This document shows, one piece after another, positions 2,505-39,794 of a stretch of 64,000 nt of DNA. A model generated the notes under the pieces. It saw only the letters and a list, made by a program, of their open reading frames with translations. It was not told the DNA's origin and did not search any database. Both the position numbers and the translations under genes were made by a program. The stretch comes from Patescibacteria group bacterium (lineage in GTDB: Bacteria; Patescibacteriota; Microgenomatia; Daviesbacterales; UBA10151). The stretch lies in contig JAMCSY010000004.1 in the NCBI GenBank assembly GCA_023379125.1, positions 58,479-122,478 on the forward strand. Direction: 5' to 3'. Within the stretch, counting starts at the first letter, position 1; each line of letters starts with the position of its first letter.

Positions 2505-3089
2505 ATGGCGGAGTTTGAACAGCAGTTACAAGGCACAGCAGTCTTGATCAATGAGCTTGCTCGGGTACATACTGTAGAAACTGCAAAATTCCTTCATCCT
2601 CGCAATTGGAGAGATTATTCTGATCTTAAACTTCCAAATGGCTTTCTCCCTCTGGAATCTGTGTCAAATGATGTAAAAGTAGCGACTGAGCTAACTGAAA
2701 GAATCCGGCGATTCGGATCGGTCCACAACCCATATCTAGATCAATATATACCCTTCATTTGGGAAAGATATGGAATTGAAACTGGAGAACCAAAGACACT
2801 CAAGCAAATAGCTCAAAGTCATAACATAAGCGTTCGAGCTGCGTGGGAGGCCACAGATAGAACAGTCTGGACTATATTCGTTGAAACCAAAGATAAGATT
2901 ATTGTTAGCTTGTTGCCGTTTTTATTACAAGACCAAGTTCAAGCGTTATTAGCTAGATCAATGATAGATACATCTAGAGTTGTCACAGCAACCTTATTAA
3001 CTGCCATAGACAAGGATTATATACGCGAGCTTTATTATCCAGGAGTTATATCTAGTATTAACATTATAAATAAATATCTGCTTGGCTAA
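2505..3089 (+). CDS. Hypothetical protein, translationally coupled to the recombinase gene
   Basis: 194-aa ORF whose ATG immediately follows the recombinase stop (TAAATGGCG); no recognisable domain. Confidence 0.4.
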   Translation: MAEFEQQLQGTAVLINELARVHTVETAKFLHPRNWRDYSDLKLPNGFLPLESVSNDVKVATELTERIRRFGSVHNPYLDQYIPFIWERYGIETGEPKTLKQIAQSHNISVRAAWEATDRTVWTIFVETKDKIIVSLLPFLLQDQVQALLARSMIDTSRVVTATLLTAIDKDYIRELYYPGVISSINIINKYLLG

Positions 3090-3130
3090 TAAATTGACGA
3101 CATTGATCAAAATCTCTACTCACTAACGCG

Positions 3131-3146
3131 CAGTAAGACATTTGTG
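3131..3146. repeat. Direct repeat copy 1 (cagtaagacaYttgtg); its reverse complement resembles the tRNA-Ile anticodon arm
   Basis: 15 of 16 nt identical to the copy at 3332-3347. The reverse complement aaatgtcttactg mimics aaatgtcttatac of the tRNA at 3251-3322. Confidence 0.5.
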
Positions 3147-3184
3147 GGCGGACTAAGTGAAGCTTTCCTTCTGCTTCGCAAAAC

Positions 3185-3233
3185 GTAGGATTTGAACCTA
3201 GAACCAAATGCGTATGACAAGTTGCATTTGTCC
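3185..3233 (-). pseudogene. Partial tRNA copy (anticodon arm and T arm only)
   Basis: Minus-strand ggacaaatgcaacttgtcatacgcatttggttctaggttcaaatcctac matches the 3' half of the neighbouring tRNA-Ile but lacks the D arm and acceptor stem. Confidence 0.55.
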
Positions 3234-3250
3234 TGAAAACTTTTTGATAG

Positions 3251-3322
3251 TGGAGCCGCTAGGATTTGAACCTAGAACCAAATGTGTATAAGACATTTGC
3301 TCTACCATTGAGCTACGGCTCC
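3251..3322 (-). tRNA. tRNA-Ile (anticodon UAU)
   Basis: Reverse complement reads GGAGCCG-TA-GCTC-AATGGTA-GAGC-A-AATGT-CTTATAC-ACATT-TGGTT-CTAGG-TTCAAAT-CCTAG-CGGCTCC-A; positions 34-36 are TAT; CCA is not encoded. Confidence 0.65.
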
Positions 3323-3331
3323 AAAAGTTTT

Positions 3332-3347
3332 CAGTAAGACACTTGTG
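3332..3347. repeat. Direct repeat copy 2 (cagtaagacacttgtg)
   Basis: Matches the copy at 3131-3146; flanks the tRNA-Ile and the tRNA fragment. Confidence 0.5.
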
Positions 3348-3399
3348 CTGACCAGTTGAGTTATCCGCCCAAGATCAGGCTAATTTTAACAAAAAAAGC

Positions 3400-3645
3400 T
3401 TAGAGGTGTAAGTAGTTACCCAACATCGTCAGTAGCGCAGCAATGATGATCGAGGAAGGTAGTGGAATATAGAACTGAGCATATTCTTTGTTAAAATGGA
3501 TATCCCCAGGCAGTCTGGGCAACTTTGGCATAATATTCCACAGCAATGTCATCAGCAAAAAAGTTAAGCTAAAAACATAAAATCCTCTACTCAACTCTTG
3601 CCAAATTTGCGTTAAAATTGTGGTTTGTGGTGAAGTTGAGATCAT
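3400..3645 (-). CDS. Small two-TM membrane protein; its start overlaps the stop of the upstream T4SS ATPase (possible VirB3-like partner, speculative)
   Basis: 81 aa with two hydrophobic helices; 4-bp overlap (ATGA) with the end of the ATPase gene. Confidence 0.4.
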   Translation of the reverse strand: MISTSPQTTILTQIWQELSRGFYVFSLTFLLMTLLWNIMPKLPRLPGDIHFNKEYAQFYIPLPSSIIIAALLTMLGNYLHL

Positions 3646-6044
3646 AATTGGGCCCTCCGGGTAATTTCTGCCTCAACCTCGACCATATCTCGTCCGTAAG
3701 TTAGCCTCGATAACTCCTTAATGGCGTTGGCAATATCTGGTCTTTTCATCGAATTCCAGGTGTTAAAATCAATATCTACCCTCATGGAAAATGGTGGTAC
3801 AGGTTCACCTTTGACCTGGGTTTTAACATAAACATGCCAAGCTTCAATATTGACTAAATCTGATTCTGTAAAAGTTGGAGTAAACTCATGCTGCAAGAAA
3901 TTGGCATCAGTCACTCCCACCCGGTAAGAAATTAAAGTCCCCACGTTACCAAAAATAGCATTTTTGATATCCTCAGGAATCTGCCCAATAAACTGATTGG
4001 CCACAATTAAGTTTAATCTATACTTCCTCGCTTCAGACAAAATTGTGGCAAAGGTATCAGTTGCAAAATTTTGAAACTCATCAACATAAAGATAAAATGG
4101 TTTCCGTTGCTCTTCTGGTAAATTAGCACGAGACATAGCAGCTGCCAAAATTTTGGGAACCAAGATTAAACCTAAAAAATTCGAGTTTTCCTCTCCCATT
4201 CTTCCCTTGGATAAATTAACGATTAAAATCTTCCCTTCATCCATAATTTGCCTTAAATCAAAAGAGGATTTACTCTGACCAATGATATTTCGCAGCATTT
4301 TATTTGTGACAAAACGGCCAAATTTGGAAACGGTATAATCCAAAACTTCTGATTTATGAAAATCCTGCGTGTGGGCAATCTGGTCTGTCCAATATCTTCT
4401 AACTATTGGATCATTAACCAGAGGCAGCAGTTCTTTGACAAACTCAGGATCCTGCATAATCCTCATCACTTCTACAAAAGTATTACCTGGTTTGGCCATT
4501 GCTGTGAGCATGGCATTTCTAACTCCATGCTCAAACCTGGGGCCAATAATTCCAGTTTTGTTGGGATCATAAAGTTTATACATCAGACCTAAAATTTCGG
4601 TGGTAATAAAGTGCTTTTCATCTTCTGAGTGAGCTTCAATCATGTTCATACCAAATGGGCGTTCAGTATCTCCGGGATCAAAATAGATAACATCCTTAGC
4701 TCGTTGTGGTGGAATCAAAGATAATAATTCTTCAGCCGCATCACCGTGAGGATCAATAAAAGCTAGGCCCTTACCAGCTAGAATATCTTGCAACATCAAA
4801 GTTTTGAGCAGAGTAGTCTTACCAGTACCAGTACGACCAATAATATACATATGTCGTTGCCGATCTTCTTCGCTAATATAGACAGGCCTTTCAATACCGC
4901 GAAAAACAGATTTTCCTAGATAAAGCCCACTGGTGGGAATTTTTTCTGAGGCTGGAGCAGCTCGAGCTGGCAAAAAGTCCAGGTAAGGTGTTTGAATTAT
5001 CTTGCTAGGAAAATGAAAAACTGAGGCAATCTCATCCGGAGTAAGAACTGGCGGTTTAGTAGTCAGCGGCATAAAGCGATAAATAAAGTCAGTCATAAAC
5101 CCTTCTTCAGCATTTTTTATTGGTAATTTAAAAAGTTGGGCAAAAGGTAAAATTAATTGCTTGAAAAAACCATCTTTCAAAGAAGCTGAGGAAAAATTAT
5201 TATACGGCCCAGCAAATTGCTCAAAAGCTGCCTTTAAATTGGTCAAATGAGCTTTAGCACTTTCTTTGGAAGTTGAGGAAGTAACAAGCCTGATCACTGT
5301 ATCAAAGCCAGGTTTACCGAGTTTATTTTCCACTGCCTCTAACTGTTTAGCATCAGGAGCAGGCTTAGGGCTATCTGGCTTGCCTGGATCTTTTTCCTTT
5401 TTTAGCCAAGCTTTACCTGCATCTTTCCACTTACCATCAGAGGGAGCAATTATGACTTGTACTGCTGCTCCTTCACCAGGTTGCATTTTAGCCAAAGCTG
5501 AGGTTAACGCCGAGAGTGGATCAGTTGGTAAATCACGGTAAGTCTTGATTGGATAATAGTCAGCTGATTTTAATTTGAGTTGTGCATAAGCTGTTTCGCC
5601 TTTTTCGGTAAAAATATTATATTCAGGTACTTTTTTAATCAAAGCATCAGGATAAGCACCGTGGATTTGTTTTTCGATCAGATCTTCCATTGATTTATGG
5701 ACACTGATATAAAACTTAATTGATTCATGTAGGGCCACAATTTCAAAAGACAAAAAAGCTTGTGGTTTAAGTCCTAAGAATCCAGTGTTTTTCTTAATAG
5801 AGTTCAGTGTCGAAATTAGTTGCTCAGTCGCATCAATCTTGACTTCATTATCTTTGGGGACAGACACTTGCAGTAAAATTGCTTCCAGTGAAGATTTTTC
5901 TCGACCACGCCCTTTCAGCAAAGCAGCAATATACTTCCATAAATACAGTAGCAGCAATACAATCACTGATACAGCCAAAAAGCCTAAAGTGACTGTGGTT
6001 AAAAAACCAGTTAGGTCAAATTGCGGAGCATTAGATACTTCCAT
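3642..6044 (-). CDS. VirB4/TraC-family type IV secretion ATPase (VirB4/VirD4 P-loop superfamily)
   Basis: 800 aa with an N-terminal TM helix, Walker A GRTGTGKTT, IDPHGD, Walker B-like LYVDEFQNF and RK...ANQ motifs typical of the T4SS/FtsK-HerA ATPase fold. Confidence 0.7.
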   Translation of the reverse strand: MEVSNAPQFDLTGFLTTVTLGFLAVSVIVLLLLYLWKYIAALLKGRGREKSSLEAILLQVSVPKDNEVKIDATEQLISTLNSIKKNTGFLGLKPQAFLSFEIVALHESIKFYISVHKSMEDLIEKQIHGAYPDALIKKVPEYNIFTEKGETAYAQLKLKSADYYPIKTYRDLPTDPLSALTSALAKMQPGEGAAVQVIIAPSDGKWKDAGKAWLKKEKDPGKPDSPKPAPDAKQLEAVENKLGKPGFDTVIRLVTSSTSKESAKAHLTNLKAAFEQFAGPYNNFSSASLKDGFFKQLILPFAQLFKLPIKNAEEGFMTDFIYRFMPLTTKPPVLTPDEIASVFHFPSKIIQTPYLDFLPARAAPASEKIPTSGLYLGKSVFRGIERPVYISEEDRQRHMYIIGRTGTGKTTLLKTLMLQDILAGKGLAFIDPHGDAAEELLSLIPPQRAKDVIYFDPGDTERPFGMNMIEAHSEDEKHFITTEILGLMYKLYDPNKTGIIGPRFEHGVRNAMLTAMAKPGNTFVEVMRIMQDPEFVKELLPLVNDPIVRRYWTDQIAHTQDFHKSEVLDYTVSKFGRFVTNKMLRNIIGQSKSSFDLRQIMDEGKILIVNLSKGRMGEENSNFLGLILVPKILAAAMSRANLPEEQRKPFYLYVDEFQNFATDTFATILSEARKYRLNLIVANQFIGQIPEDIKNAIFGNVGTLISYRVGVTDANFLQHEFTPTFTESDLVNIEAWHVYVKTQVKGEPVPPFSMRVDIDFNTWNSMKRPDIANAIKELSRLTYGRDMVEVEAEITRRAQL

Positions 6045-23747: not shown

Positions 23748-24638
23748 TTAATAGTTTTGAGGCGACTCTACGTAACCATCAAAAATAGCGGCCTCGATCT
23801 CATGCTTCTTTGGGTTATCGTCATCGAACGCATCCTCAACCATCTTTAGATCTAATAACGATTCGTCTTTAACTTTTTCAAAAGCTCCGGCGCTTAAAAA
23901 ATTACCATAAAAGTTTCTCTGGGGATTTACTACATTTTGTTCAAGTTGAATATCGAAATTATTCTTTAAATATTCCGTGATTTTGATATACACTGCTTCC
24001 GCTAGGCCATTATAAAGCTGTTGATTCTGAATATTACCGTGAATTAGTTTATGGCGTAAGCCAGTGCCATAGAGATAGAGTTTATCGTATAGCTCATTGC
24101 CTAAAATTGCTTTTAAAGCATTTTGATCTGTTCTCACTCTACCGTTTGCTCTAATCTCTCCTGCAAATCCTTCAGCAGCTCCAAGAAGCATCGTTAATCG
24201 AGTGATCGCCGTCATAGAATTTGCAGCTTCCATAATATAAAAGAGACCGTTTTTGTTAGGAATAGATTGAAATTTGGGCAACTGTTCGATCTCTTGTGTG
24301 TCAAAATGAAGCCCTGTGTGGCTAACTCCCTTGACGTAGTATATATAAATAATATTTTCAGGATTATGAGTTTTTTTAAATATGAAATAACTATTTGCAG
24401 CTAAACGGAACGCGCATTGAGATACCACTGAAAACTTTTCTACCTCAGGAATTAGCTCTGTAATAAACTTATACCTTGCTTCACCGGCATTATTGGCGCT
24501 TATGATTTTCGACGCAACCCACGCATCACAATTCCACCATTCGTTAGTGTAGGAACTGAAGTTATATCCTCCTGAGTTAAATCCCTGAATAAGTTCGGCT
24601 ACAGTTGCAATTTTATAGCTGATAAGATAATCGTTCAT
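23748..24638 (-). CDS. Hypothetical protein, middle gene of a four-gene operon
   Basis: 296 aa; start/stop overlap with the upstream gene (ATGA at 24638). Confidence 0.5.
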   Translation of the reverse strand: MNDYLISYKIATVAELIQGFNSGGYNFSSYTNEWWNCDAWVASKIISANNAGEARYKFITELIPEVEKFSVVSQCAFRLAANSYFIFKKTHNPENIIYIYYVKGVSHTGLHFDTQEIEQLPKFQSIPNKNGLFYIMEAANSMTAITRLTMLLGAAEGFAGEIRANGRVRTDQNALKAILGNELYDKLYLYGTGLRHKLIHGNIQNQQLYNGLAEAVYIKITEYLKNNFDIQLEQNVVNPQRNFYGNFLSAGAFEKVKDESLLDLKMVEDAFDDDNPKKHEIEAAIFDGYVESPQNY

Positions 24639-26089
24639 TATTTTTGTTTTCGATACAACTCTTCGTTTACAATTACTCCGTCATCTGTTTTTTGAATGTA
24701 CGGTTCGTGATGAGAGTCAGGGACGAAACCAAATCCTGAAGCATAAATGTCTTGGATAATAGATCCAGCAATCTTTTCTGATTTAATTAAATCCTCGGTA
24801 TCATAAGGTCCAAACTGCCAATTATCCTTTTTCTGAGTACCGACATTTGAACGAATAAAATTATTTACGGTCAATACAAGCGAGTATTTGCCTCCATTTT
24901 TCGTTATAAATCCAATTTCCACATCATAAGATAATCGTTCTTTATCAATGATCCCAGCATTAATTAATGCCTTGATAAATAAAAAGAAACTATTCACATA
25001 TTCAACAAAAGCAAAGGCGTTTAATAATTTTTTACCCTCATTCTTCTCGTCGTCTTGAAGACCCCAATCAAGAAACTCTTGTATATTAGCTCCTGCAGCA
25101 ACAATCCCATTTTTCGTAACTTTAAGTATCTTCCTATTACCGTTCATAACCTCCCAACTGTTTCCCTCGGGTTGAGGATATTCACTGTAGGCAACACTTA
25201 AATCCCAACCCATATTCCTTAATATGGGCGGATTCTTCATATGGTGATATATCGATCCATCTGACTTATCCCAGAAGTTATTGAGAGTTACCCCTCTTGT
25301 GGGAGTAGCAACCATATAAAAGACATCTGCCTCGGCATCAAGTTTATTGATAAATTCCTCGACTATTCTTTTTTTTTGTTCTACGTCTGGAGGTTGAATC
25401 GCGGATTTAGTCTGAGATTCCTCTATCCGATCCGCTATTGCAGATAGTCGACTTATTTGATTTTCAACACTTACGTTAGTCATGGAACCCGATAAAACAC
25501 CGGCCACATATTCTTGAAACTTGTGGGCGTCGACTAGTTGAATGTTTTTTGCGCCATCTCGAGTATATATTCCATAAACCTGCCCTTTAAGTACAATCTC
25601 TTCTTTTGGATTCCATTGGTCTTGAGGAATGATGAAGGGGTATAAGCCCATATCTTTGGCGTTGGGTATCTTAATCCACAACACTTCTTTATCTTTACTC
25701 ACAAACCCCGATGCAATCTTTTCTCTGGGAAAACGAGGTACTAAACCATCAGACAGTATATCCAGCCACCGTTCAATATCTAAAGCTTTTGCTTCTATTC
25801 CACAAACAGATTTTACATACTCAACCTGTCTGCCTTTAACGGTATCGGGAACCAAACCAATTAGCAAATATCCACCCCCGCTATTGGAGATTGAGGAAAT
25901 ATCCTTTAATAGCTCTGTTCTGGATTTATATTTAGCCCAGTCTTTTCCTGATTTTTCTTCTTCGAAGTAGGGTTTTTCTCGAAACTCGAAATAAGAAGTT
26001 TCTAACGCACCAATAAAAAGGCTCGGGTCATTATTCTTAATTATTTCCTCTATCTCTTGGATAGATAGAAGCTTCGTTGTAACTTCCAT
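24638..26089 (-). CDS. Protein with an N-terminal AlbA_2/Schlafen-like (divergent-AAA) DNA-binding domain and no P-loop
   Basis: The N-terminal ~100 aa (IQEIEEII...ELLKDISSISNSGGGYLLIGLVPDT) match the PF04326 pattern; there is no Walker A anywhere in the 483 aa. Confidence 0.5.
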   Translation of the reverse strand: MEVTTKLLSIQEIEEIIKNNDPSLFIGALETSYFEFREKPYFEEEKSGKDWAKYKSRTELLKDISSISNSGGGYLLIGLVPDTVKGRQVEYVKSVCGIEAKALDIERWLDILSDGLVPRFPREKIASGFVSKDKEVLWIKIPNAKDMGLYPFIIPQDQWNPKEEIVLKGQVYGIYTRDGAKNIQLVDAHKFQEYVAGVLSGSMTNVSVENQISRLSAIADRIEESQTKSAIQPPDVEQKKRIVEEFINKLDAEADVFYMVATPTRGVTLNNFWDKSDGSIYHHMKNPPILRNMGWDLSVAYSEYPQPEGNSWEVMNGNRKILKVTKNGIVAAGANIQEFLDWGLQDDEKNEGKKLLNAFAFVEYVNSFFLFIKALINAGIIDKERLSYDVEIGFITKNGGKYSLVLTVNNFIRSNVGTQKKDNWQFGPYDTEDLIKSEKIAGSIIQDIYASGFGFVPDSHHEPYIQKTDDGVIVNEELYRKQK

Positions 26090-26097
26090 AGTTCATA

Positions 26098-26361
26098 TCA
26101 AAAGGGCAGAAGCTTCCCCGCACTCACGTTGAGAGCTTTAGCAAGCTTATAGAGATTAATAAGAGATGGGTTCCTTACTCCTCTCTCAATTTGCCCAATA
26201 TAGGTAAAGTGCATACCGGCTTTATCGGCTAGCTCTTCCTGGGTCCACTCCTTTTCTTGCCTAAGTTTCCTTAGGTTTTGGCCAAAGGCCTTACGTATAT
26301 CTATCATACCCAATAAAACTACAAAAATGAAGACGATGTATCCAGAGACGATAAGTCTCAA
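26098..26361 (-). CDS. XRE-family HTH transcriptional regulator (true start probably at the internal Met near 26307)
   Basis: LRKLRQEKEWTQEELADKAGMHFTYIGQIERGVRNPSLINLYKLAKALNVSAGKL; its stop is 8 bp from the downstream gene. Confidence 0.75.
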   Translation of the reverse strand: MRLIVSGYIVFIFVVLLGMIDIRKAFGQNLRKLRQEKEWTQEELADKAGMHFTYIGQIERGVRNPSLINLYKLAKALNVSAGKLLPF

Positions 26362-26396
26362 TTTTGTTATAATGGGTTATTGGAAGGAGGTGTTAT

Positions 26397-26681
26397 ATGA
26401 ACACACTATTAAAAACAAGATGCACTAAAGGTCATTTAGTTATATATGAGGATCGCGTAGCCATAGAGCTAAACGGTCTTGGTTTTAGCAATACGAACTC
26501 TCTTACTTATAAGCAAATAACCGGCGTTGAAGTTAAGACCACGATGGCTAAAATCCCAATTCTCTCTAAAGGAGCTGCTACCATAAAAGTGTATGCTACC
26601 GGCGATCAAAAATTGGAAGCCTCTTTTGTAACGTTAGATGATGCTAAAAGGGCTGAAGAACTTATAAGGCAGCGCATATAA
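26397..26681 (+). CDS. Hypothetical small protein, divergent from the XRE regulator
   Basis: 94-aa ORF with a GGAGGT RBS 8 bp upstream. Confidence 0.45.
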   Translation: MNTLLKTRCTKGHLVIYEDRVAIELNGLGFSNTNSLTYKQITGVEVKTTMAKIPILSKGAATIKVYATGDQKLEASFVTLDDAKRAEELIRQRI

Positions 26682-26695
26682 AGTGATACAACATG

Positions 26696-26711
26696 TGCGA
26701 CACGTGTCGCA
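26696..26711. promoter_or_regulatory. Perfect 16-bp palindrome (TGCGACACGTGTCGCA), likely an operator
   Basis: Perfect inverted repeat. The 8-bp palindrome ATCGCGAT at 26714-26721 follows, placed just before a sigma-70-like promoter. Confidence 0.5.
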
Positions 26712-26736
26712 TTTATCGCGATAATACGGTCTATTC

Positions 26737-26765
26737 TTGACATTACTTACTTTAATTGTTAATCT
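26737..26765 (+). promoter_or_regulatory. Sigma-70-type promoter
   Basis: TTGACA, a 17-bp spacer, then TAATCT. Confidence 0.45.
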
Positions 26766-26897
26766 GAATATATATTAGCCCAGTCGCCCAGTGATATAGG
26801 CGCATACGAGGCACAAACCGAATCTCATTAGTCTTTTGACTGTTTGAGAACGGATATCACATAAGTTGATATTCGTTTCTTGGCAGTCTTTTTTTAT

Positions 26898-26923
26898 GGC
26901 ACCCAAGAAGCGGGTGCCTTTTT
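26898..26923 (+). terminator. Rho-independent terminator-like hairpin
   Basis: GGCACCC-aagaagc-GGGTGCC followed by TTTTT; the next ATG is 3 bp after it. Confidence 0.5.
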
Positions 26924-26926
26924 AGT

Positions 26927-27139
26927 ATGGAAATGAAGACTAATACACAACTACCGATATCTAATAGCCGACTTAGGTTATCTCCTAAAGCTATATCCGA
27001 TTTTCAACAAGCTTTTTTTGAAGAATACGGCATAAGAATCTCCGAACAAGAAGCTAATACTTGCGGTTTAAGGCTCCTTAGATTAGTCAAACCTGTTTAT
27101 AAACCCATTCCAGTCAAAAGTTATGGAAAATCCAAGTAG
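26927..27139 (+). CDS. Hypothetical small protein
   Basis: 70-aa ORF. Confidence 0.35.
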   Translation: MEMKTNTQLPISNSRLRLSPKAISDFQQAFFEEYGIRISEQEANTCGLRLLRLVKPVYKPIPVKSYGKSK

Positions 27140-27365
27140 CACTTATCGAACAAAAGATCTGTATCTTGCTTCCTATCTATTTTCGGAAGGAATCGAGTTA
27201 TCGGGATCAGACAGAGTCGGATCAGTATATTGGTTCGTCTTTGCAAATAAAGTTGAATGCGAACGCCTAGCAAATCTCTACTGGACAGATCGAGCCAACT
27301 CGAAAATTAAGTCGTTTGTAGAAGCCATACGGTCTTTGAAGGACATTATTTTCGCTAAACCTTAA
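27123..27365 (+). CDS. Small phage/mobile-element-type protein; paralog of the 40823 ORF
   Basis: KDLYLASYLFSEGIELSGSDR...VYWFVF...LKDIIF aligns with DSYLLACYLLSESCQLVSIDR...MVFIFQ...LKAMIY at 40823-41068. Confidence 0.5.
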   Translation: MENPSSTYRTKDLYLASYLFSEGIELSGSDRVGSVYWFVFANKVECERLANLYWTDRANSKIKSFVEAIRSLKDIIFAKP

Positions 27366-27378
27366 TCAGACTAATGAG

Positions 27379-27825
27379 ATGAATATGGACAACATGGATA
27401 GAAACAAGCTAATTGAACGTTATAGACAGCGTTCAGAAGCAAATAAAGGAATTGAAAATCATTTTTTATGGACAAGGGTCAATTTTTCGACCGCAAGAGA
27501 TGGTCATATCCGAAAGCTTGGAGCAAACGCGTTTGCAGTCTTTATGGTAATTCGTACTTATATGGATAAAGAAAAAATCGCTTATCCGTCGCTTGCACGA
27601 ATAGCTTATCAGTCAAACTTAAGTGTTCGAACGGTAGAAAAAGCATTAAATAAGCTCGTCGACGAGGGTTGGATTAAAAAGGTAGGCAGAATGATCGATA
27701 AAGGTAAGTTCGGAAATACAAGATATCTAATACTCCAACATGATCTTATAAGAGGGACTGATGACCCGAGTTTTATGAGTAAGCCAATAGCAAATATTGC
27801 CAATGGTAATCAAGGCAACCAATAG
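27379..27825 (+). CDS. Winged-helix DNA-binding protein (replication-initiator/DnaD-like HTH)
   Basis: SLARIAYQSNLSVRTVEKALNKLVDEGWIKKV looks like a winged-helix motif. Confidence 0.4.
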   Translation: MNMDNMDRNKLIERYRQRSEANKGIENHFLWTRVNFSTARDGHIRKLGANAFAVFMVIRTYMDKEKIAYPSLARIAYQSNLSVRTVEKALNKLVDEGWIKKVGRMIDKGKFGNTRYLILQHDLIRGTDDPSFMSKPIANIANGNQGNQ

Positions 27826-27952
27826 CAAAAAACCAACTATGGATAAATACCAAGTAAGTATTATCTATGTTTTAAGAACTATTAATAAGAATAATTGTTT
27901 TATATATAAAAAGAAGAAAAGTTTACAAAATTGACACTATAAAAAAAGAGAT

Positions 27953-28453
27953 ATGGCAAACGAACTAGTCAGAGAAAAAACGAAGCAAAAGTTTCTAGAT
28001 ATCCTCTCCGAAGAGGCAGGAGGTAATATCAGCGAGGCTTGTAAAGCAGTTGGTTTTAGCAGGCAAGCCATTAATGAATGGCGGTTAAACGACCATAGCT
28101 TTGATAATCGAGTACAACAGGCAATCTTAAACGGAAAAGAGGATCTAGCTGATTTAGCAGAAACACATCTACAAAAAAGAATTCGTAATGGGGACACAAC
28201 AGCAATTATTTTTACACTTAAATCTTTAAGACGAACATTTTTTGGGGAAAGAATTGAAGTCGAAACGGCAAAAAAGAGCAACAATGGTCGAGCTATTAGT
28301 TTAACTCCTGGCTTTTCAAAAACTCTGTTAGCAATCGGTTTAAAGCAAGCCCCGACTAACGTTCTTACCGAAGAGCAAAGAAAACAACTTAATGGATTAG
28401 TTGGAATTTTTGAAGATTATTATGATAATCTTAATGAAGACGATAAGTCTTAA
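27953..28453 (+). CDS. Terminase-small-subunit-like HTH protein
   Basis: GGNISEACKAVGFSRQAINEWRLNDHSFDNRVQQAI resembles terminase small subunit / Psq-type HTH proteins. Confidence 0.45.
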   Translation: MANELVREKTKQKFLDILSEEAGGNISEACKAVGFSRQAINEWRLNDHSFDNRVQQAILNGKEDLADLAETHLQKRIRNGDTTAIIFTLKSLRRTFFGERIEVETAKKSNNGRAISLTPGFSKTLLAIGLKQAPTNVLTEEQRKQLNGLVGIFEDYYDNLNEDDKS

Positions 28454-28459
28454 TTCAAT

Positions 28460-30289
28460 ATGAATAAATTCTTTATATATTGCCGAAAATCTTCAGAACA
28501 GGAAGATAGACAAGTTTTATCTTTACCTGGGCAAGCTCGAGAACTGCAAGAATACGCCAAAAGGGAAGGTTTGACGATTGTCGATACTTATCAAGAATCA
28601 AAAAGCGCACATTGGGCTGGCAGAATTGACTTTAATAACATGCTTATGAGGATTAGAAGCGGTGAAGGTAACGGAATAATAGTCTGGGACGAATCTAGAA
28701 TAGCTAGAAACGCTTTAGATAGCGGTACCGTAATCTATATGATCGATCTTCAGGAAATTGTAGAGATTAGGAAGCCTGGAAAAGTATATAAAAACACCCC
28801 TGACGATAAAAGTTGGTTAGCTATGTGTTTTATGATGTCTAAAAAGGAATCAGACGATAAAGGTGTGAGTGTAAAGAGAGGGCTAAAAACTAAAGCAGAA
28901 AAGGGTTATTTGCCTAGTGGAGCTAAAGCAGGTTATATGAACGATAAATATGCGGAAAAAGGTAATAAAACACTCTTAGTAGATCCCGTCAGATTCCCAC
29001 TTATAAAAAAGACGTGGGAAATGTTCTTAACTGGAATTTACAGCCCTCCACAAGTATTAAATAAGCTAAATGACGAATGGGGGTACAGAACTCCCCAACA
29101 TAAACGCATAGGTGGTAAACCAATGACAAGAAGTCAGATATATAAAACTTTAGCCGACCCTTTTTATTATGGAGTATTTGAATATCCCGAAGGTAGTGGA
29201 AATTGGTATCAGGGCAAACATGAACCCATGATAACCAAAGATGAGTTCGATAGAGCGCAAATGCTTCTTGGCAAAAAAGGTAGGCCAAGACCTAAAACCC
29301 ATGATTTTACCTATACAGGCTTACTTACTTGTGGCGAATGCGGAGCGATGATTACTGCTGAAGAAAAATATCAAGTCATATGTCCTGTTTGTAAATTAAA
29401 GTTTGCCTCTCTCAATAAAGATAGCTGTCCGGAGTGCAAAACAAGAATTGAAGATATGATTAAACCAACACTTCTTCACTACACTTATTACCACTGCACC
29501 AAACGTAAGAAAAAAACATGCTCACAGCTAGGCATTCGTCTCGAAAAAATGGAGGCTCAAATTGAGGGATTATTATCCCGAATCCAAATATCAGAGCGCT
29601 TCAAAAATTGGGCGATTAAGTATTTAAATGAACTGAACGTTATTGAAACTGAAGATAGAGACGTGATCTTAAAATCACAACAAGAAGCTTATGATGATGT
29701 GGTTAAACGAATTGATAACTTAATAAAGCTTAAGATCTCACCTCAAAACACCGATGGTTCATTACTCTCCGATGATGATTTTAAGAGACAAAAAGAGGAT
29801 TTAATGAAAGAAAAGTCTACGTTACAAGAAAAACTCGGAGACACAGACAATCGTATAAATAAGTGGGTAGAGTTATCAGAAAAAACGTTCAACTTTGCAT
29901 GCCATGCTCGCTATTGGTTTGCTAATGGCGACACAGAAACGAAAAAGCAGATATTAATGGGGATAGGTTCGAACCTAACGCTAAAAGATAAAACTGTGCT
30001 TGTAGACCTAGAAAAACCATTACAGTTTATAGAAGAAGCTAAAAACGAAGTACCGGAAATATCACCAATGTTCGAACCTACAAAAAAGGGCCTCACTGAG
30101 ACCCAATTAGGGGTTTTATATTCTCAAAATCCAACTCTGCTCCCTAGCCCTAAGGATATTATACTGCCCCAATTTGAGGCTATTTTAAAGGCATTTACTA
30201 ACCCTATTTGGATGGGAGAAATGCGCGTTCGATGGAATGAAATTAAGAAATTAAGCCGAGAACCTAATCCGGCACTTGTAGTAGCATGA
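28460..30289 (+). CDS. Large serine recombinase (integrase)
   Basis: N-terminal resolvase catalytic domain (IYCRKSSEQEDRQVLSLPGQ), recombinase domain, Cys4 zinc ribbon (CGECGAM...CPVCK...CPECK) and a C-terminal coiled coil. Confidence 0.85.
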   Translation: MNKFFIYCRKSSEQEDRQVLSLPGQARELQEYAKREGLTIVDTYQESKSAHWAGRIDFNNMLMRIRSGEGNGIIVWDESRIARNALDSGTVIYMIDLQEIVEIRKPGKVYKNTPDDKSWLAMCFMMSKKESDDKGVSVKRGLKTKAEKGYLPSGAKAGYMNDKYAEKGNKTLLVDPVRFPLIKKTWEMFLTGIYSPPQVLNKLNDEWGYRTPQHKRIGGKPMTRSQIYKTLADPFYYGVFEYPEGSGNWYQGKHEPMITKDEFDRAQMLLGKKGRPRPKTHDFTYTGLLTCGECGAMITAEEKYQVICPVCKLKFASLNKDSCPECKTRIEDMIKPTLLHYTYYHCTKRKKKTCSQLGIRLEKMEAQIEGLLSRIQISERFKNWAIKYLNELNVIETEDRDVILKSQQEAYDDVVKRIDNLIKLKISPQNTDGSLLSDDDFKRQKEDLMKEKSTLQEKLGDTDNRINKWVELSEKTFNFACHARYWFANGDTETKKQILMGIGSNLTLKDKTVLVDLEKPLQFIEEAKNEVPEISPMFEPTKKGLTETQLGVLYSQNPTLLPSPKDIILPQFEAILKAFTNPIWMGEMRVRWNEIKKLSREPNPALVVA

Positions 30290-30855
30290 TTAACTTAAAA
30301 GACCCTAATGTTAAATTGGATAAAAACGGCTTACCAAAAATAAAGCCTCTAACTGACGCGCAAAAGAAAAAGTTTGAAGAATGGGATAAAGAAGCGGCTA
30401 AACCGGTACGACCTGACGGAATAGCTAAAGACCCCGCACTAAGGGAAGCAAGAGGCTTATACGTCGATAACGGCTTATATGTTCAATCCTCCGTCCACTA
30501 TAACGATGCCGATTATGTTCCAAAAGTTAGAAATGAACTTATTCAAGAGTTTAACGCAACAAATAAGGCAGAATTATTGTTGGTTGATATGGTTACAAAC
30601 GCTTATTTTGGCTATATGCGATCATCAAAAGCGCTTATGCTATTTATCGAGGACAATGATGGTCGAAGGGATTTCGATAGTCAAACCTGGATAAACATGA
30701 TGAAGGAGCTAGGAAAAATAGTTGATATGGCTAATAGGCACTTTACAACGTCTTTAACTTGCCTTAAAGAGTTCCGCCAGCAACCAGTTAAAGTTAAAGT
30801 ACATGCTAAAGAAGCTTTCATAGCTAATAATCAGCAGTTTAATAAAAATGCTTAA
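30286..30855 (+). CDS. Hypothetical protein
   Basis: 189-aa ORF overlapping the recombinase stop. Confidence 0.4.
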   Translation: MINLKDPNVKLDKNGLPKIKPLTDAQKKKFEEWDKEAAKPVRPDGIAKDPALREARGLYVDNGLYVQSSVHYNDADYVPKVRNELIQEFNATNKAELLLVDMVTNAYFGYMRSSKALMLFIEDNDGRRDFDSQTWINMMKELGKIVDMANRHFTTSLTCLKEFRQQPVKVKVHAKEAFIANNQQFNKNA

Positions 30856-30875
30856 TGATTTAGGAAAATATTTTT

Positions 30876-31214
30876 ATGAGCCGCCTCTCTGTTGAAGAAT
30901 GTCAAAAGTTGTATATCACTAGCCTTAAAAACTCCTTAACTAGCGGAATAATTCTTGATATAAACGGCGTACCGGTTAGTTTAGTAACTACAAAATGCCA
31001 TTATGGCGGTGTACGGTTTTGGTTCTCTTGCCCTGGTTGCCATAAGAGAGTTGGGGCTTTATACCGTAAACCTCTTGCTCAATATTTTTTATGCAGGCAT
31101 TGTTTAGGATTAGTTTATCAGCTTACTATTAAGCGCCGTTCAAAGGATGAGGGTTGGATAAAATTACTTCATTCTTTCCGAAATTTACCTGTTTATCATA
31201 AAACTAGTGCATAA
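30876..31214 (+). CDS. Small zinc-ribbon protein
   Basis: CPGCHKR...CRHC forms a CxxC...CxxC motif. Confidence 0.4.
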   Translation: MSRLSVEECQKLYITSLKNSLTSGIILDINGVPVSLVTTKCHYGGVRFWFSCPGCHKRVGALYRKPLAQYFLCRHCLGLVYQLTIKRRSKDEGWIKLLHSFRNLPVYHKTSA

Positions 31215-31268
31215 TAAAAGTAGTAGGATTGTCTTTTAAAAGTCTGTATACTAAATATAGGTGCCATT

Positions 31269-31958
31269 ATGGATGAATTTACTTTTGTAAAACTTCTAAA
31301 ACAAATTTTCACCCAGGAAGGCTTCTTAGCAAAAAGAGAAATAGGAGTAGGTTATGGAGTTGCTGATTTAGTTTTAATCAAAAACACGGCCATAAACAGC
31401 AATAACTGCTCAATCAGAAAAAACCATAAACAATACACTCCACTCCTAAATGAAAAGTATTTCCAAACGTTAAAGGTGTTACCTGACGAAAATGACCAAG
31501 ACAAATCCCTCCCATTTAGTCTTATAGCTAAACAAACAAACTTCTCCGAAAGCTACTTGCGTTACACCATCCTTAAAAAATTGGAAAGGCACGGTTACGT
31601 TAAAAAGGACGGCAATAAAAAGTATTTTAAAGTTAACGGTTGGTTGCCAATAGCCAATGAGGTAATAGCTATTGAGGCTAAACTGAAGGATTGGAAAAGA
31701 GGCGCGATACAAGCAAATAGGTATAGGGCATTTGCTAATAAGGTTTATTTAGCTATTCCTAAAGAAACGGAACGATTAGTTGACAAAAAATTCCTAAAGA
31801 AAATTAACGTCGGCTTAATTATTTTAGACGTAGAGAAAAATGCTAAAAGAACGGTTATCGCTAGTAAGAAGTTTAAACCCTTAGACGAATATAAACACCA
31901 TTTAGCGGCAGAATATTTCTGGAATAAAAGAGAGTTAATAAATTTTACCCAAATTTAG
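31269..31958 (+). CDS. Hypothetical protein
   Basis: 229-aa ORF. Confidence 0.4.
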   Translation: MDEFTFVKLLKQIFTQEGFLAKREIGVGYGVADLVLIKNTAINSNNCSIRKNHKQYTPLLNEKYFQTLKVLPDENDQDKSLPFSLIAKQTNFSESYLRYTILKKLERHGYVKKDGNKKYFKVNGWLPIANEVIAIEAKLKDWKRGAIQANRYRAFANKVYLAIPKETERLVDKKFLKKINVGLIILDVEKNAKRTVIASKKFKPLDEYKHHLAAEYFWNKRELINFTQI

Positions 31959-32384
31959 CTTCTCTAGGCTGTCTATAAACCTTTTCCCCGTTACCGCTCT
32001 GATACCATCATAGTTTTTAATATCCAAAACGTCCTTATCCCCAGAAATTATTATTTGAGCGCCGCATGCTTTAGCAACTCGAAACCAAATATCATCGTCT
32101 TTATCACGGGTAATACTCACTCCTTCCAGCACTTCGTATGGTTCAACGATTTTTATAAGCGATCGGTAATCAAGAACTAACTTTTCAGGAGTATATATTT
32201 GTTTTTTCCAATATTTTTGGACCCTTTTAACTAGGATTTTTTCCTTAAATTCAGCAAAGGTTTCCTCACTGCCATACAGCACTATTTTCTTTGCTAAGGA
32301 CAAGTTAAGTATTTTCCGAGGATATCCGGGAAACCCTAACATACCGGAGAGCATTATGTTTGTGTCTGGAACTACTTTTATCAT
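31935..32384 (-). CDS. PIN-domain nuclease (PIN_3 family toxin-like), last gene of the R-M operon
   Basis: MIKVVPDTNIMLS ... DKDDDIWFRVAKACGAQIIISGDKDVLDI matches the PIN_3 acidic-residue pattern. Confidence 0.65.
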   Translation of the reverse strand: MIKVVPDTNIMLSGMLGFPGYPRKILNLSLAKKIVLYGSEETFAEFKEKILVKRVQKYWKKQIYTPEKLVLDYRSLIKIVEPYEVLEGVSITRDKDDDIWFRVAKACGAQIIISGDKDVLDIKNYDGIRAVTGKRFIDSLEKLNLGKIY

Positions 32385-33574
32385 TGTTCATTATCAAGTT
32401 CATTTAGTAATTGATTTAGGGAAGCTTCATCACTTTCAGTCATATATTCCCAATCACTAGCAGTATCAAGAACAGCAATCCATCGTTGTAAGTGATCGGT
32501 TTTAAACGGCGAGGCGTAATCCCTAACATATTGGCCAACAAGCGATACCGCACTTTGAAGACTACTTTTCATTAACTTAATACGCTCTTCACGACTAAGA
32601 GGCGCTAAACTATCCATCACCGCCATTCGTCTTTCAAGGAAATGCAACTTCTTATTTTTCGCGTCATTTGGTATACCACCATTACAGTAAGAGCAACTAC
32701 ACTGATAACCGATTTTCTTAAGCTCGACATCGTTAGCGTAATCAAATATTTCCGGTACATATGTCCAGCCACCATTTCTTCCAAATCCCTTTTTACGAGC
32801 CTCAAGGTTTTTAACGGAAAATGTTTCACCGGCACCTAAACCGCTTGAAAAACCACTTCCCCCTATTGCGCTAAGTACCTCGCCGAAACCACCAAGGTGT
32901 TTGGTAAATACATATTTGTCTTTGGATAATTGGAATACTAAATCAGCTAAACCGATGAGGTGGTCTAAGTCTGCCTTACGGGCATCAAGGTCGTTAATAG
33001 TAACAAAATATCCAGCAATTTTGTCTTTAAAGTCGCCGCTGTACATGTCAACCACATAGTTCCTGACCTGTGGCCTCAACAAAACTCCGCCGCCGAGGTT
33101 AATACTGGCAAAAACCGGTTTCTGAATATGCTGCTCTTCTAAATACCTTAAAGTTTCGGAAAGTAGAGTTAAATTAAGGGTAAATTTAATATCATCGGTG
33201 TCCTCGCTATAAAAAGCAGGTGCAACAATAACACAGGCATTGGCGTTAACTTGAGAGGTAACCGCCGGAATTATTACCTTATTTAACCTTTCAGTAGCGT
33301 TACTATAAAGAGTTTCGGGGACAATATTGTCGCCGTAAGACAGCTTTTTATAATTCTTTTTGTTCCGTGCGCCGGGATAAAGTAATTGAACCGTTGCAGG
33401 ATCAACGATAATAGGTTCTCCCAATTCAACGGCTTTTTGCGCTACCACAGGCCGCCACACAGTGTGATGTAAGTCCATCAATACCACTGGAACTTCAATT
33501 CCAGCTTCAAATATGCTTAAATCCGCAATTTTCGGTATAAAAATCGGCAATTTGCTAAATAATTGGTCGCTCAT
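32381..33574 (-). CDS. Hypothetical 397-aa protein between hsdS and the PIN gene
   Basis: Overlaps both neighbours by 4 bp; Gly-rich segment GGFGEVLSAIGGSGFSSGLGAGE; CSCSYCNGG. Confidence 0.5.
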   Translation of the reverse strand: MSDQLFSKLPIFIPKIADLSIFEAGIEVPVVLMDLHHTVWRPVVAQKAVELGEPIIVDPATVQLLYPGARNKKNYKKLSYGDNIVPETLYSNATERLNKVIIPAVTSQVNANACVIVAPAFYSEDTDDIKFTLNLTLLSETLRYLEEQHIQKPVFASINLGGGVLLRPQVRNYVVDMYSGDFKDKIAGYFVTINDLDARKADLDHLIGLADLVFQLSKDKYVFTKHLGGFGEVLSAIGGSGFSSGLGAGETFSVKNLEARKKGFGRNGGWTYVPEIFDYANDVELKKIGYQCSCSYCNGGIPNDAKNKKLHFLERRMAVMDSLAPLSREERIKLMKSSLQSAVSLVGQYVRDYASPFKTDHLQRWIAVLDTASDWEYMTESDEASLNQLLNELDNEQ

Positions 33575-34926
33575 AATTGTTCACTACTAAATGTCTTTGA
33601 TAACACAGCTTGTGTTAACTTTGCAACTTTTAACTCAGCTCTTTCAATTTGTTTCTCAACTTGGTTAGCAATATCAAAGTAAAATTTTACTTGGCGTACT
33701 ATTTCTTCCTGTTCTGCTAGAGAACAAAATGGTACTTCAAACTTTCCGAGTTTTTGAGCATTGATGTTTGATTGACTGACACCGTCCGTCTTTACTTGAT
33801 AGCAGAAATCGCGGGCATACTGTGAATTAAGGCAATAATTTAAATATTCGGAATTAAGCTCAGGAAAATTGTTTATTTTTATAAGGTATCCGGCAAATAT
33901 TGCCTCATGTTCACCTCTGTAAATACTTGTTTTGCCAACTAACTCGGGACTATTCGTACGATTAAACAGTACGTTGCCGGTTTTCAGTTTATATTTTTCA
34001 ATTTCGTCTGGGTCTGATGTGTAGACCAAACTTTCCCAATCAATTTCACCATTTTGTAAATTACCCATACGTAACACGGGTATTTTTCCTTCGGGGTTTG
34101 ACTTCGCCGAGGTTCCATACTGAAACCCTTCGCAAAGTTTATCCAATGCTACAAGTTCCCACTCATCGGGCAAATCAGCGATATTATTTTCTTCCTCGTA
34201 AGAATATATCGTTTCAATTTTCTTTTTCTCTGTACTCGTGGCCTTGCTTAGCCGTCGAGCTTTAAGGTCGTCAACTACCTTTTTGGTTGATTCTTGTTGG
34301 TTTTTTTCTCTCCACTCCTCAGTAAGCCTGCCTGTTATCGCGGCGGATATAATGGCTTGTCGAAATTTCTGTACCAATTTTTTGGCCTTTTTAATCCCTT
34401 TAAGCGAAAGACTAATTTTATTAATATCATTTTCTAACTTTTCTGCTACGATGTGCTGAAGTGCGATGTCCTCTGGATATGAAATTTCTAGTTCTTCGAA
34501 TGCCCGTTTTGAAATACCCGTAAAGGTTGAACCCTGTCCTTTTTCTTCAAGGAGAGGTTTTACAACTTGAGCAAAATAAAAAAGAAATATACTATCGATT
34601 CGATTGTTTGGCCTTAAGGAAGCTAAACCTCTACCAATACAGCACTTTTCCGCAGCCATGTTTACATCACCTATGGGAGCTCTTACCGATACTAATACAT
34701 CCCCTTTTTCTGCTATTTTTTTAGGTTCGTTGGTATAAACCGTTACTTTTGGGTATTTAATTCCAAAATCCTTATTTCCTTGGAAAAAAGGTAGACCATT
34801 GCCTTTTTTGTTATACGAAGACGATGGGGGCGATTGTCCCATTATAATTTGAGCAACGTCTGGTAGTGGATTAGTTACCCAAACATCATTAGGTCTATTT
34901 TGTTGTTCCGTTTTCGAGTTCTGCAT
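33571..34926 (-). CDS. hsdS: Type I restriction-modification specificity subunit
   Basis: 451 aa with two target-recognition-domain-like halves separated by conserved helical spacers; sits directly after hsdM. Confidence 0.75.
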   Translation of the reverse strand: MQNSKTEQQNRPNDVWVTNPLPDVAQIIMGQSPPSSSYNKKGNGLPFFQGNKDFGIKYPKVTVYTNEPKKIAEKGDVLVSVRAPIGDVNMAAEKCCIGRGLASLRPNNRIDSIFLFYFAQVVKPLLEEKGQGSTFTGISKRAFEELEISYPEDIALQHIVAEKLENDINKISLSLKGIKKAKKLVQKFRQAIISAAITGRLTEEWREKNQQESTKKVVDDLKARRLSKATSTEKKKIETIYSYEEENNIADLPDEWELVALDKLCEGFQYGTSAKSNPEGKIPVLRMGNLQNGEIDWESLVYTSDPDEIEKYKLKTGNVLFNRTNSPELVGKTSIYRGEHEAIFAGYLIKINNFPELNSEYLNYCLNSQYARDFCYQVKTDGVSQSNINAQKLGKFEVPFCSLAEQEEIVRQVKFYFDIANQVEKQIERAELKVAKLTQAVLSKTFSSEQL

Positions 34927-39011: not shown

Positions 39012-39026
39012 AAATTTTTATGCTTA

Positions 39027-39218
39027 TTATTTATTTTTATTTTTTTCTATAAACCGTTCTATATCCTCAGGCTTATAACGCCTATCACCACGTACACTTA
39101 CCTTGACGGCGGGAAGTTTACCTTCCTTATCCCATCGGCGCAGGGTTTCAGGGTTAACCCCTAATATTTCTGCTGCCTCGCGAATTTTCAGTAACCTCAA
39201 CTTTTTACCGGTAGTCAT
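39027..39218 (-). CDS. Xis/AlpA (MerR-superfamily) excisionase-type HTH protein
   Basis: LLKIREAAEILGVNPETLRRWDKEGKLPAVKV; its stop lies 16 bp before the hsdR start. Confidence 0.65.
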   Translation of the reverse strand: MTTGKKLRLLKIREAAEILGVNPETLRRWDKEGKLPAVKVSVRGDRRYKPEDIERFIEKNKNK

Positions 39219-39338
39219 AATTACAATTAACTACAAATACTTATACATCATTTTATCGCATTAAGCTGGAGTTTTCTATGGGTTTTGAGGAACGACAAAA
39301 CTCCTCCTTTAAGAGGGATTGTCTTTACATAAGTTTGA

Positions 39339-39641
39339 TTATTTCCGGATTTCGTTAAGGACGAAGTCTTGTACCTTTTCCGCCCAGTTTTTTGGGATTT
39401 CTACCTCGGCTAATAATGTCCCTCTACCGTTTAACTTAACAACATTTTTTCCCATTCCGCCTTTATCCAAACTAACCGATTCGATGTCTGCCTTCACTAC
39501 TCGGAATGATTTACCGTAAATACTTTGGTAAGAAATATAGTTATCATTGGCTTTAAAAGTGTAGCCACCCATCCCAAAAGACAATTTTCGTTCGTTTTTA
39601 TTGTTATTTCCAAAACCAAATAAGCCCATTATTTTTTTCAC
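39339..39641 (-). CDS. Hypothetical small protein
   Basis: 100-aa ORF. Confidence 0.4.
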   Translation of the reverse strand: MKKIMGLFGFGNNNKNERKLSFGMGGYTFKANDNYISYQSIYGKSFRVVKADIESVSLDKGGMGKNVVKLNGRGTLLAEVEIPKNWAEKVQDFVLNEIRK

Positions 39642-39745
39642 CTCCCTTCGTCAAACATTAACTACGTCTTTTTATAAGGAGGCGGGCAACAAAAAGCTCC
39701 CCGCCAGCGATGGCTTTCGCCACCCACGCAGGTTTCCCCACGCGA

Positions 39746-39794
39746 CCGTGCAAGGTGCTCTGACGAGGAGCTTCCTACCTTGCACGGTATTTTT
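39746..39794 (+). terminator. Long GC-rich hairpin plus U-tract inside a locally GC-rich 150-bp non-coding patch
   Basis: CCGTGCAAGGT...ACCTTGCACGG is an 11-bp stem enclosing the GCTC-tgacgag-GAGC hairpin, followed by TATTTTT. Confidence 0.45.

Follow-up and report, generated by a model that had tools for sequence, protein, structure and literature searches.

According to our analysis, the first kilobases of a 64-kb stretch of contig JAMCSY010000004.1 from a Patescibacteria group bacterium, a Daviesbacteria-like member of the Microgenomates (the window in what follows), contain an intact gene for an isoleucine transfer RNA (tRNA) with the anticodon UAU, tRNA-Ile(UAU), which lies between the separated pieces of a second gene of the same identity. 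The features of this locus are listed in Table 1 in reading order on the minus strand, from 3420 to 3120. The inner tRNA was reported by ARAGORN as tRNA-Ile with anticodon tat at 3250-3322 on the minus strand, and Rfam RF00005 matched 3251-3322 over its full length (model positions 1-71) with 77.2 bits against a gathering score of 29. It has the 7-nt loop CTTATAC at 3292-3286, with U33 and a purine at position 37. Both programs thus agree with the preliminary description of this DNA in assigning the anticodon UAU. The partial tRNA copies that it noticed around the intact gene are likewise real, among them one of 30 nt with 97% identity; it overlooked the acceptor strand and the decayed D arm of the upstream half, the partner strand TCCGCCCA and a 12-bp inverted repeat.

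Table 1. Coordinates of features at the tRNA-Ile(UAU) locus of the window and at related loci (L numbers).
Feature	Position	Strand	Remarks
Promoter-like site, extended -10 (CTTACA, 18 nt, TG-n-TAAAAT)	3383..3412	-	ends 12 nt upstream of the outer 5' half
Displaced tRNA-Ile(UAU), 5' half, 36 nt (GGGCGGA...CTTA)	3335..3370	-	acceptor GGGCGGA, decayed D arm, stem AGTGT, loop CTTA to A35
Insert left flank CTGAAAACTTTT, 12 nt	3323..3334	-	5' strand of the helix enclosing the inner tRNA
Intact tRNA-Ile(UAU)	3251..3322	-	acceptor GGAGCCG/CGGCTCC, anticodon TAT 3290-3288, discriminator A, CCA not encoded
Right-flank strand AAAAGTTTTCAG	3233..3244	-	pairs with 3323-3334
Terminal hairpin GACAA-ATGCAAC-TTGTC	3216..3232	-	stops 1 nt short of the right junction
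Ends of the window insert			right ...TTGTCA, left CTGAAAAC...
3' half copy from U36, 30 nt (TAC GCATT TGGTT CTAGG TTCAAAT CCTAC)	3185..3214	-	without acceptor strand
Filler, 32 nt	3153..3184	-	last 11 nt GCTTCACTTAG
Acceptor 3' strand of the displaced gene, TCCGCCC + discriminator A (TCCGCCCA)	3145..3152	-	7/7 complementary to GGGCGGA at 3370-3364
Second 16-mer copy CACAARTGTCTTACTG	3131..3146	-	copies the junction of 5' half and insert, includes CTTA/CTG
Xer-like tyrosine recombinase, 289 aa	1635..2504	+	Phage_integrase and SAM_1 (Pfam); 627 bp from the nearest repeat
Split tRNA-Met(CAU) near the recombinase	L115:931-1100; L113:690-1000; L135:694-900; L133:816-1060; L109:868-1005; L118 near 210; L127 near 838	- (L115)	
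Group I introns in tRNA-fMet	L007:10342-10546; L103:1673-1865; L101:970-1166; L091:1726-1984; L141:1847-2037; L157:189-386; L018:7094-7287; L162:112-306		
Modules in opposite orientation	L107:3779-4139 vs L118:2901-3341 and L110:3546-3788		recombinase genes 89-97% identical; promoter included

The outer pieces can be traced to related genomes. The first 16 nt of the 5' half, a sequence unique in the window (0.03 matches expected), are identical in 15 of 16 positions to the intact tRNAs of loci L007, L011 and L093, and the TCCGCCCA found at 3152-3145 is the same as the 3' end of these tRNAs. In the sister Daviesbacteria genomes L007 and L011, an intact GGGCGGA...TCCGCCCA tRNA-Ile(UAU) stands straight after the stop codon of the same 800-aa DUF8128/TraD-like gene, and in L084 and L085 a gene of the GGGCGGA type follows the same type of promoter. 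Because of the match of the 5' half and the exact 3' end in the sisters, we consider the outer pieces to be the original tRNA-Ile(UAU) of the lineage. The acceptor 3' strand lies about 220 nt downstream of the 5' half, and the two pair in both the minimum free energy and the centroid folds; the stem strands GCATT of the 3' half and AGTGT of the 5' half can also pair, with two G-U pairs. The junctions read CTTA/CTG on the left and TCA/TAC on the right, and by this comparison the resident gene is split between anticodon bases 35 and 36, after A35. The promoter-like site contains the box TGTTAAAAT, which is also present before the outer 5' halves of L009 and L010; it is putatively the displaced gene's own promoter, now driving the inner tRNA. 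The acceptor stems of the inner and outer genes differ at five of seven positions, each change being compensated on the opposite strand, and the inner acceptor type, GGAGCCG, belongs to the sole tRNA-Ile in L005 and L087 and to the outer gene in L015.

The window insert is about 120 bp long and has a complete tRNA as its only content. The inverted repeat around the intact tRNA, I1, has a core of 12 bp and 93% complementarity over 15 nt, and it is paired in the predicted fold (z = -2.5 for the leader/trailer duplex of the locus). Beyond the insert, the 3' half matches model positions 34-64 in an nhmmer search and shares 97% identity with the inner tRNA in a 30-nt alignment (3186-3215 with 3260-3289). 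The last 11 nt of the filler may resemble a decayed T loop and T stem. The 16-bp direct repeats described earlier do exist, at 3332-3347 and 3131-3146; they are identical at 15 of 16 positions and flank a block of 201 bp, and the 185 bp between them contain no open reading frame (ORF). Two matches were found where 0.03 were expected, a result reached in none of 100 shuffles. Their reading as fragments of an anticodon arm had to be revised, as the upstream one is the tail of the 36-nt 5' half and the repeat combines the 5' strand of the anticodon stem with insert flank. Since the 16-mer holds 3 nt of that flank, it copies the junction and not the tRNA core. No junction duplicate of this kind was found in 14 other nested loci, and the idea that nests in general carry such an att-like repeat was dropped for that reason.

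Over all of its 330 bp, the block has exactly the same sequence in a contig of an NCBI metagenome-assembled genome (GCA_023485375.1) and in two Logan assemblies, each built from a different sequencing run, and identity in three independent assemblies indicates that it is not an assembly artifact. One might suppose that metagenome assembly had produced a chimera at a repeated tRNA sequence, and the Logan contig L003 does end within the tRNA, as contigs do at repeats. With three identical assemblies, and with similar arrangements known from a large number of unrelated projects, some of them on megabase contigs (L015, for example), such an error is hardly credible.

Bacteria in general seldom have a tRNA-Ile(UAU) encoded in the genome (PMC3575796), as the preliminary description had pointed out; in this lineage it is the norm, with 94 distinct loci in our collection. 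AUA makes up 24% of the isoleucine codons and 1.7% of all codons in the window, and this usage implies that the tRNA-Ile(UAU) gene is needed. Among the large ORFs of the window, which covers 64 kb, no TilS domain was found. A single tRNA with a CAU anticodon occurs in this stretch (968-1042); it is initiator-like and has no intron. In eight related loci, the initiator tRNA-fMet carries a group I intron (RF00028, 52–90 bits) between U33 and C34 (Table 1).

The collection comprises 80 genome loci and 80 metagenome loci, all of them fetched through neighboring proteins that served as anchors beside this locus. A tRNA-Ile(UAU) was present in 48 of the former and 50 of the latter. Half copies flank the intact gene in 14 of the 94 distinct loci according to a profile search with a threshold of E ≤ 0.01. 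Below this threshold fall the window itself, the weaker cases L144, L042 and L035, and relic 3' ends in L004, L005, L092, L098, L099, L100 and L141. The polarity among the 14 loci is uniform: all ten 5' halves lie upstream of the intact gene, and all ten 3' pieces lie downstream of it. The 5' halves end, and all 3' pieces but one begin, at model positions 31-42, the commonest arrangement being 5' halves that extend to A35 and 3' halves that start from U36. In L015, the outer tRNA is fully base-paired and is split as CTTA/.../TAA with an intact tRNA inside, and L127 is a nest of similar quality. L137 is a triple nest of the form A[B[C]], in which B is the inner tRNA of L127, and two serial 5' halves occur in L010 and L030. 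A few kilobases away, elongator tRNA-Met(CAU) genes are split likewise by inserts that carry an intact tRNA-Met (Table 1), and the locus in L133 has three 5' halves in series. The window copy is an old and untidy example of this layout.

This pattern bears on the origin proposed for the fragments in the preliminary description, in which larger elements repeatedly integrated and excised at a bacterial attachment site (attB) in the tRNA through the adjacent Xer-type recombinase, leaving 3' fragments and the 16-bp repeats as scars. Repeated insertion into a tRNA target holds in outline. Serial 3'-end scars would not place a 5' half upstream, and the polarity and the break in the anticodon loop that emerged from the comparison with related genomes differ from an attachment-site pattern. 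The 16-bp repeat around the 201-bp block, the proximity of a catalytically plausible tyrosine recombinase (some 600 bp away in the earlier account, exactly 627 bp in Table 1), the use of the anticodon loop as a crossover site by some integrase subfamilies, and the general abundance of tRNA fragments derived from the integration of elements (PMC9897764) would fit such scars. The repeats, however, enclose neither a kilobase-sized element nor any element body or cargo gene, and the 16-mer is, as described above, a junction copy peculiar to the window. Neither an integrase inside the inserted element nor repeats of the tRNA 3' part around a gene-carrying element was found.

Nor can proximity of the recombinase be taken as a sign of attachment-site activity, as had been suggested. 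Its homologs, with 39–75% identity, stand beside tRNA-Ile(UAU) in 36 of the 80 genome loci, among which are clean, unsplit genes such as those of L007 and L011. The order DUF8128 gene, tRNA-Ile, recombinase, DivIC, tRNA-Met is conserved at unsplit loci as well, and within 4-5 kb of the nests in L015 and L010 there is no recombinase, only housekeeping genes. The adjacency therefore reflects synteny conserved by vertical descent and is not evidence of action, and a role of the neighboring recombinase as a cis-acting agent is weakened, although it could act in trans. Its NCBIfam scores all stay below the equivalog cut-offs (XerC, 153.8 against 335 bits; XerD, 145.6 against 330; XerA, 148.2 against 220). 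Classical scars of larger elements are, on this evidence, an unlikely origin of the locus. Some further candidates were tried and rejected. An integron cassette does not fit, as there is no GTTRRRY core at the window or type-1 junctions (see below) and the recombinase scores 54.5 bits against an integron-integrase cut-off of 265. A dif site was dismissed, since no switch in guanine–cytosine (GC) skew occurs near 3 kb.

Across loci, the inserts measure about 120–200 bp, and their flanks amount together to only about 50-90 nt. The left flank of each insert pairs with a stretch beyond its tRNA, and 15 of the 17 inserts examined have a terminal hairpin that ends 0-3 nt before the right junction. 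This arrangement was compared with that of miniature inverted-repeat transposable elements (MITEs) and IS200/IS605-type elements: here the flanks pair mutually, and the hairpin stands at the right end only. For eight units of a first type (type 1), RNAalifold recovered the enclosing helix, the cloverleaf and a hairpin, H1, with 11 pairs kept despite two-sided changes. Complementarity of leader and trailer reached z < -2 in 16 of 90 loci, mostly nests and members of the same metagenome clade. The type-1 insert in tRNA-Ile and the insert in tRNA-Met have common flanks, TAG(C)GAACTTT...AAAGTTCGC-hairpin, and type-1 junctions read CTT/TAGCG and GGGG/TAAAG. Inserts of a second type (L009, L042, L125/L126 and, in L137, the inner one) share a right flank of 40 nt, conserved over distant hosts, and have TATA (4 nt) at both junctions, whereas no duplication is seen in type-1 and window inserts. 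The enclosing helices of L110, L115 and L128 are visibly the eroded acceptor stems of older layers. H1 also occurs in the native trailer of unsplit tRNA-Ile genes of one clade, which ruled it out as an insert-specific element. A search of IMG/VR for a viral or plasmid vector with the pattern of tRNA 3' end plus H1 gave a single match, on an unrelated, visibly G+C-rich contig, and was therefore put down to chance.

In the trailers of the unsplit tRNA-Ile genes of one clade (L108, L114, L117, L124, L130, L133, L134; also L137:3340-3390), about 10-70 nt past the 3' end, there is a stretch complementary to the gene's own 3' end (CACGCCCACCA / TGGTGGGTGTG). Next to it comes a conserved hairpin, whose loop reads TTAATT and whose stem covaries (e.g., GCC/GGC vs GTC/GAC).

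The folding of the flanks raises the question of whether the outer tRNA might still be functional, the insert being removed from the RNA in the manner of an intron and both tRNAs maturing from one transcript. Several observations are in keeping with this: the folding joins the two junctions, with compensatory changes; a G is the last base of most inserts; L015 and L127 have outer tRNAs with complete base pairing; group I introns lie in the anticodon loops of the neighboring tRNA-fMet genes of relatives; and 35/36 is a reported intron site in Patescibacteria (PMC13011429). Rfam, however, returned nothing but tRNA, and hence no intron or ribozyme, for positions 2950-3550 at E ≤ 10 and for five nested loci at E ≤ 1, and the introns of 52–90 bits that RF00028 recovered in the tRNA-fMet genes of relatives served as a positive control. 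The short flanks described above argue in the same direction. By inspection, with no dedicated search tool run, no bulge-helix-bulge was seen at the junctions of the window, L015 and L127, and type-1 junctions are unable to restore the 7-nt CUUAUAA loop. Many outer genes are, furthermore, visibly dead, as judged from the D arm in the window, from the acceptor mismatches that L107 and L118 show, and from the halves that L010 and L106 lack. Intron-like removal is improbable in the light of these findings.

Turnover at the locus is fast among close hosts, and inserts are shared among distant ones. The recombinase genes of L106, L107 and L118 are 94–97% identical, and their tRNA-Ile modules just 65–80%; the acceptor stems, inner as well as outer, are not the same. 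The module of L118 and L110 occupies the same intergenic gap in the opposite orientation (Table 1). The promoter parts are not homologous, which means that the module was replaced rather than flipped and excludes a simple inversion. Conversely, the recombinase genes of L107, L127 and L132 are only 72-73% identical, and their units 84–90%, values that the conserved tRNA body inflates; the three loci also have the same, or nearly the same, left flank. The left flank TAGCGAACTTTGACAAAGCT was found inside outer tRNAs with differing acceptor stems. The outer stem is fully complementary in L127 and L132, where the halves belong to one tRNA, and has two mismatches in L107 and L118. In L107, the two outer halves come from different tRNAs, which suggests an exchange between two anticodon-loop sites.

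These data also allow us to weigh a local accident without any mobile agent, in which slippage, unequal crossing-over or partial duplication of one gene would have been followed by divergence. The 97% identity between the 3' half copy of the window and the inner tRNA speaks for such an event, and the second 16-mer has the look of a tandem repeat of 201 bp at its beginning. Divergence of one gene, though, would have to account for acceptor stems with compensated differences at five of seven positions, for the same insert flanks in different hosts and different outer tRNAs, and for a breakpoint and a polarity that are strictly uniform across lineages. The same cassette has, by and large, already been found in clearly unrelated outer tRNAs, an occurrence that this account would not admit. 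We consider a purely local origin very unlikely.

The best explanation of the locus is that it represents a stack of tRNA-Ile(UAU) genes of different ages. Insertion at the level of DNA is what we infer from the anatomy, and the layout probably arose by the serial insertion of small cassettes, each carrying a complete cognate tRNA, into the anticodon loop. In the window, the original gene (GGGCGGA/TCCGCCC) would have been struck in the anticodon loop, between A35 and U36, by a cassette of about 120 bp made up of a short left flank, a foreign tRNA-Ile(UAU) of the GGAGCCG type, a pairing right flank and the terminal hairpin. The insertion would have inactivated the resident gene, and the cassette tRNA, transcribed from the promoter of that gene and with its dead 5' half as a leader, would have taken over AUA decoding. 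The dead halves would then have decayed, and at least one later rearrangement would have added the filler and the second 16-mer. Each cassette would bring with it a fresh, intact anticodon loop open to a new insertion, which would account for the double and triple nests. The cargo matches the target, isoleucine in isoleucine and methionine in methionine, because the tRNA genes are probably single-copy and only matching cassettes would survive.

Two routes in trans may be envisaged for the insertion step. In the first, a nuclease would cut the DNA of a CUNAUAA loop, and the break would then be repaired in a homing-like manner, with a nested allele as donor and the tRNA halves providing the homology; such a route would explain why the odd junction CTT-TAG is shared beside recipient-specific stems. 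In the second, a site-specific recombinase would act. The Ile and Met loops differ only at position 34 (CUUAUAA, CUCAUAA), which fits a single sequence-specific agent. A more far-reaching reading, which we put forward only tentatively and hold to be somewhat less probable than its negation, is that the inserts form an undescribed class of non-autonomous mobile cassette that homes to position 35/36 of the CUNAUAA loop in tRNA-Ile(UAU) and elongator tRNA-Met, destroys the gene and makes the host dependent on the tRNA that it carries. If this is true, the cassette would be an addiction-type selfish element, or the nests would be the fossil layers left by an arms race against a nuclease that cuts anticodon-loop DNA, and the enclosing helix with the terminal hairpin would be a recognition structure for a dedicated enzyme.

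Several observations weigh against serial insertion. The window copy is untidy, in that its 3' half (3214-3185) has no acceptor strand, and, judging from its identity to the inner tRNA, this half could be a local partial duplicate or a product of gene conversion. Serial insertion does not account for the 32-nt filler and the second 16-mer, nor for the type-1 junction (CTT-TAG), which lacks A35 or has an extra T. For the insert of the window, no enzyme, circular intermediate or pair of empty and filled sites was identified. The flanks, conserved and covarying as they are, could have a role in RNA processing instead of in mobility. Finally, the anchored sampling covers this one neighborhood.

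Integrative elements target tRNA genes and carry a tRNA segment that rebuilds the gene, leaving attL/attR fragments (PMC9897764). The loci described here resemble them in the tRNA target, in the working tRNA kept by the incoming DNA and in the displaced pieces that stay as fragments. They differ in their size of about 120–200 bp, the lack of integrase and cargo, the carriage of a whole tRNA instead of a 3' segment, the close flanking by both halves and the recursive nesting. At the tRNA-Thr locus of Caldiarchaeum subterraneum, a 5' fragment is followed by a 1.8-kb recombinase-encoding element and a full tRNA (PMC3293823). There, too, a mobile insertion has left a 5' fragment upstream of a complete gene with the same identity, and the locus is heterogeneous at the population level; that locus, however, is archaeal, has its own recombinase and contains introns spliced by the archaeal endonuclease, and neither nesting nor an enclosing helix has been reported for it. 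Group I introns occupy anticodon loops of bacterial tRNAs, including position 35/36 in Patescibacteria (PMC13011429). They share with the present inserts the phylum, the target (the anticodon loop, here at 35/36) and horizontal spread, whereas our inserts have no catalytic core (no RF00028 match), the rescue comes from an embedded gene and not from splicing, and the outer genes decay. In Mycoplasma mobile, a tRNA-Ile(UAU) decodes AUA without TilS (PMC3575796); this is likewise a bacterial tRNA-Ile with a genomically encoded UAU anticodon, but here a whole radiation has it in conserved synteny, at 94 distinct loci.

The halves of archaeal split, permuted and multi-intron tRNAs are joined into functional tRNAs by bulge-helix-bulge processing. 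Interruption at or near the anticodon loop and helices that bring the halves together are common to these genes and the present loci; here, in contrast, no such motif was seen on inspection, and the halves appear dead. In the full-text literature, we did not find this layout of nested or tRNA-carrying insertions in tRNA genes described. Insertion into tRNA genes with functional rescue is known, and what is new is the layout: tiny, gene-less inserts with a whole replacement tRNA, an enclosing helix and recursive nesting.

Several other features surround the locus. A 194-aa ORF (within 2505-3089) begins at the stop codon of the recombinase gene (TAAATG) and had no match in Pfam, NCBIfam or PHROGs. 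A DUF2905 gene (3400-3645 region) stands between the DUF8128 gene and the tRNA locus. Both are missing in all 160 related loci according to tblastn, which suggests that the hot spot also took up protein-coding cargo in this species. The 800-aa DUF8128 protein (3642-6044), whose gene precedes tRNA-Ile(UAU) across Microgenomates, has weak matches to ATPases of the TraD/VirD4/HerA type and may be a coupling ATPase of a type IV secretion or DNA-uptake machinery of Patescibacteria. Farther on, the region 24638-43461 is a probable integrated island with two large serine recombinases (28460-30289 and 42094-43401), the second of which overlaps the 3' end of tRNA-Asn (43389-43461). Also present in the island are a Schlafen/AlbA_2 protein (24638-26089), a type I restriction-modification system (32381-39011) and a LOOT RNA (39709-39821), and there are local reversals of GC skew at 27-31 kb and at 40-43 kb. 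The rest of the window contained no repeat of the tRNA-Asn 3' end that could bound this island.

A cell normally survives an insertion into an essential single-copy tRNA gene through self-splicing, as in introns, or through a supplied 3' segment, as in integrative elements. The nested loci would represent a third route, in which a whole spare gene is carried and the old one is left dead around it. They may thus offer a concrete bacterial model for the disruption of tRNA genes and the origin of half-tRNA genes, a long-standing question in tRNA evolution. For annotators, half-tRNAs beside tRNAs in Patescibacteria should not be taken for ordinary att sites, and the locus is a hot spot of hypervariability in genomes that are otherwise streamlined. 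A dedicated enzyme, if there is one, would have a very short, defined target in a conserved gene.

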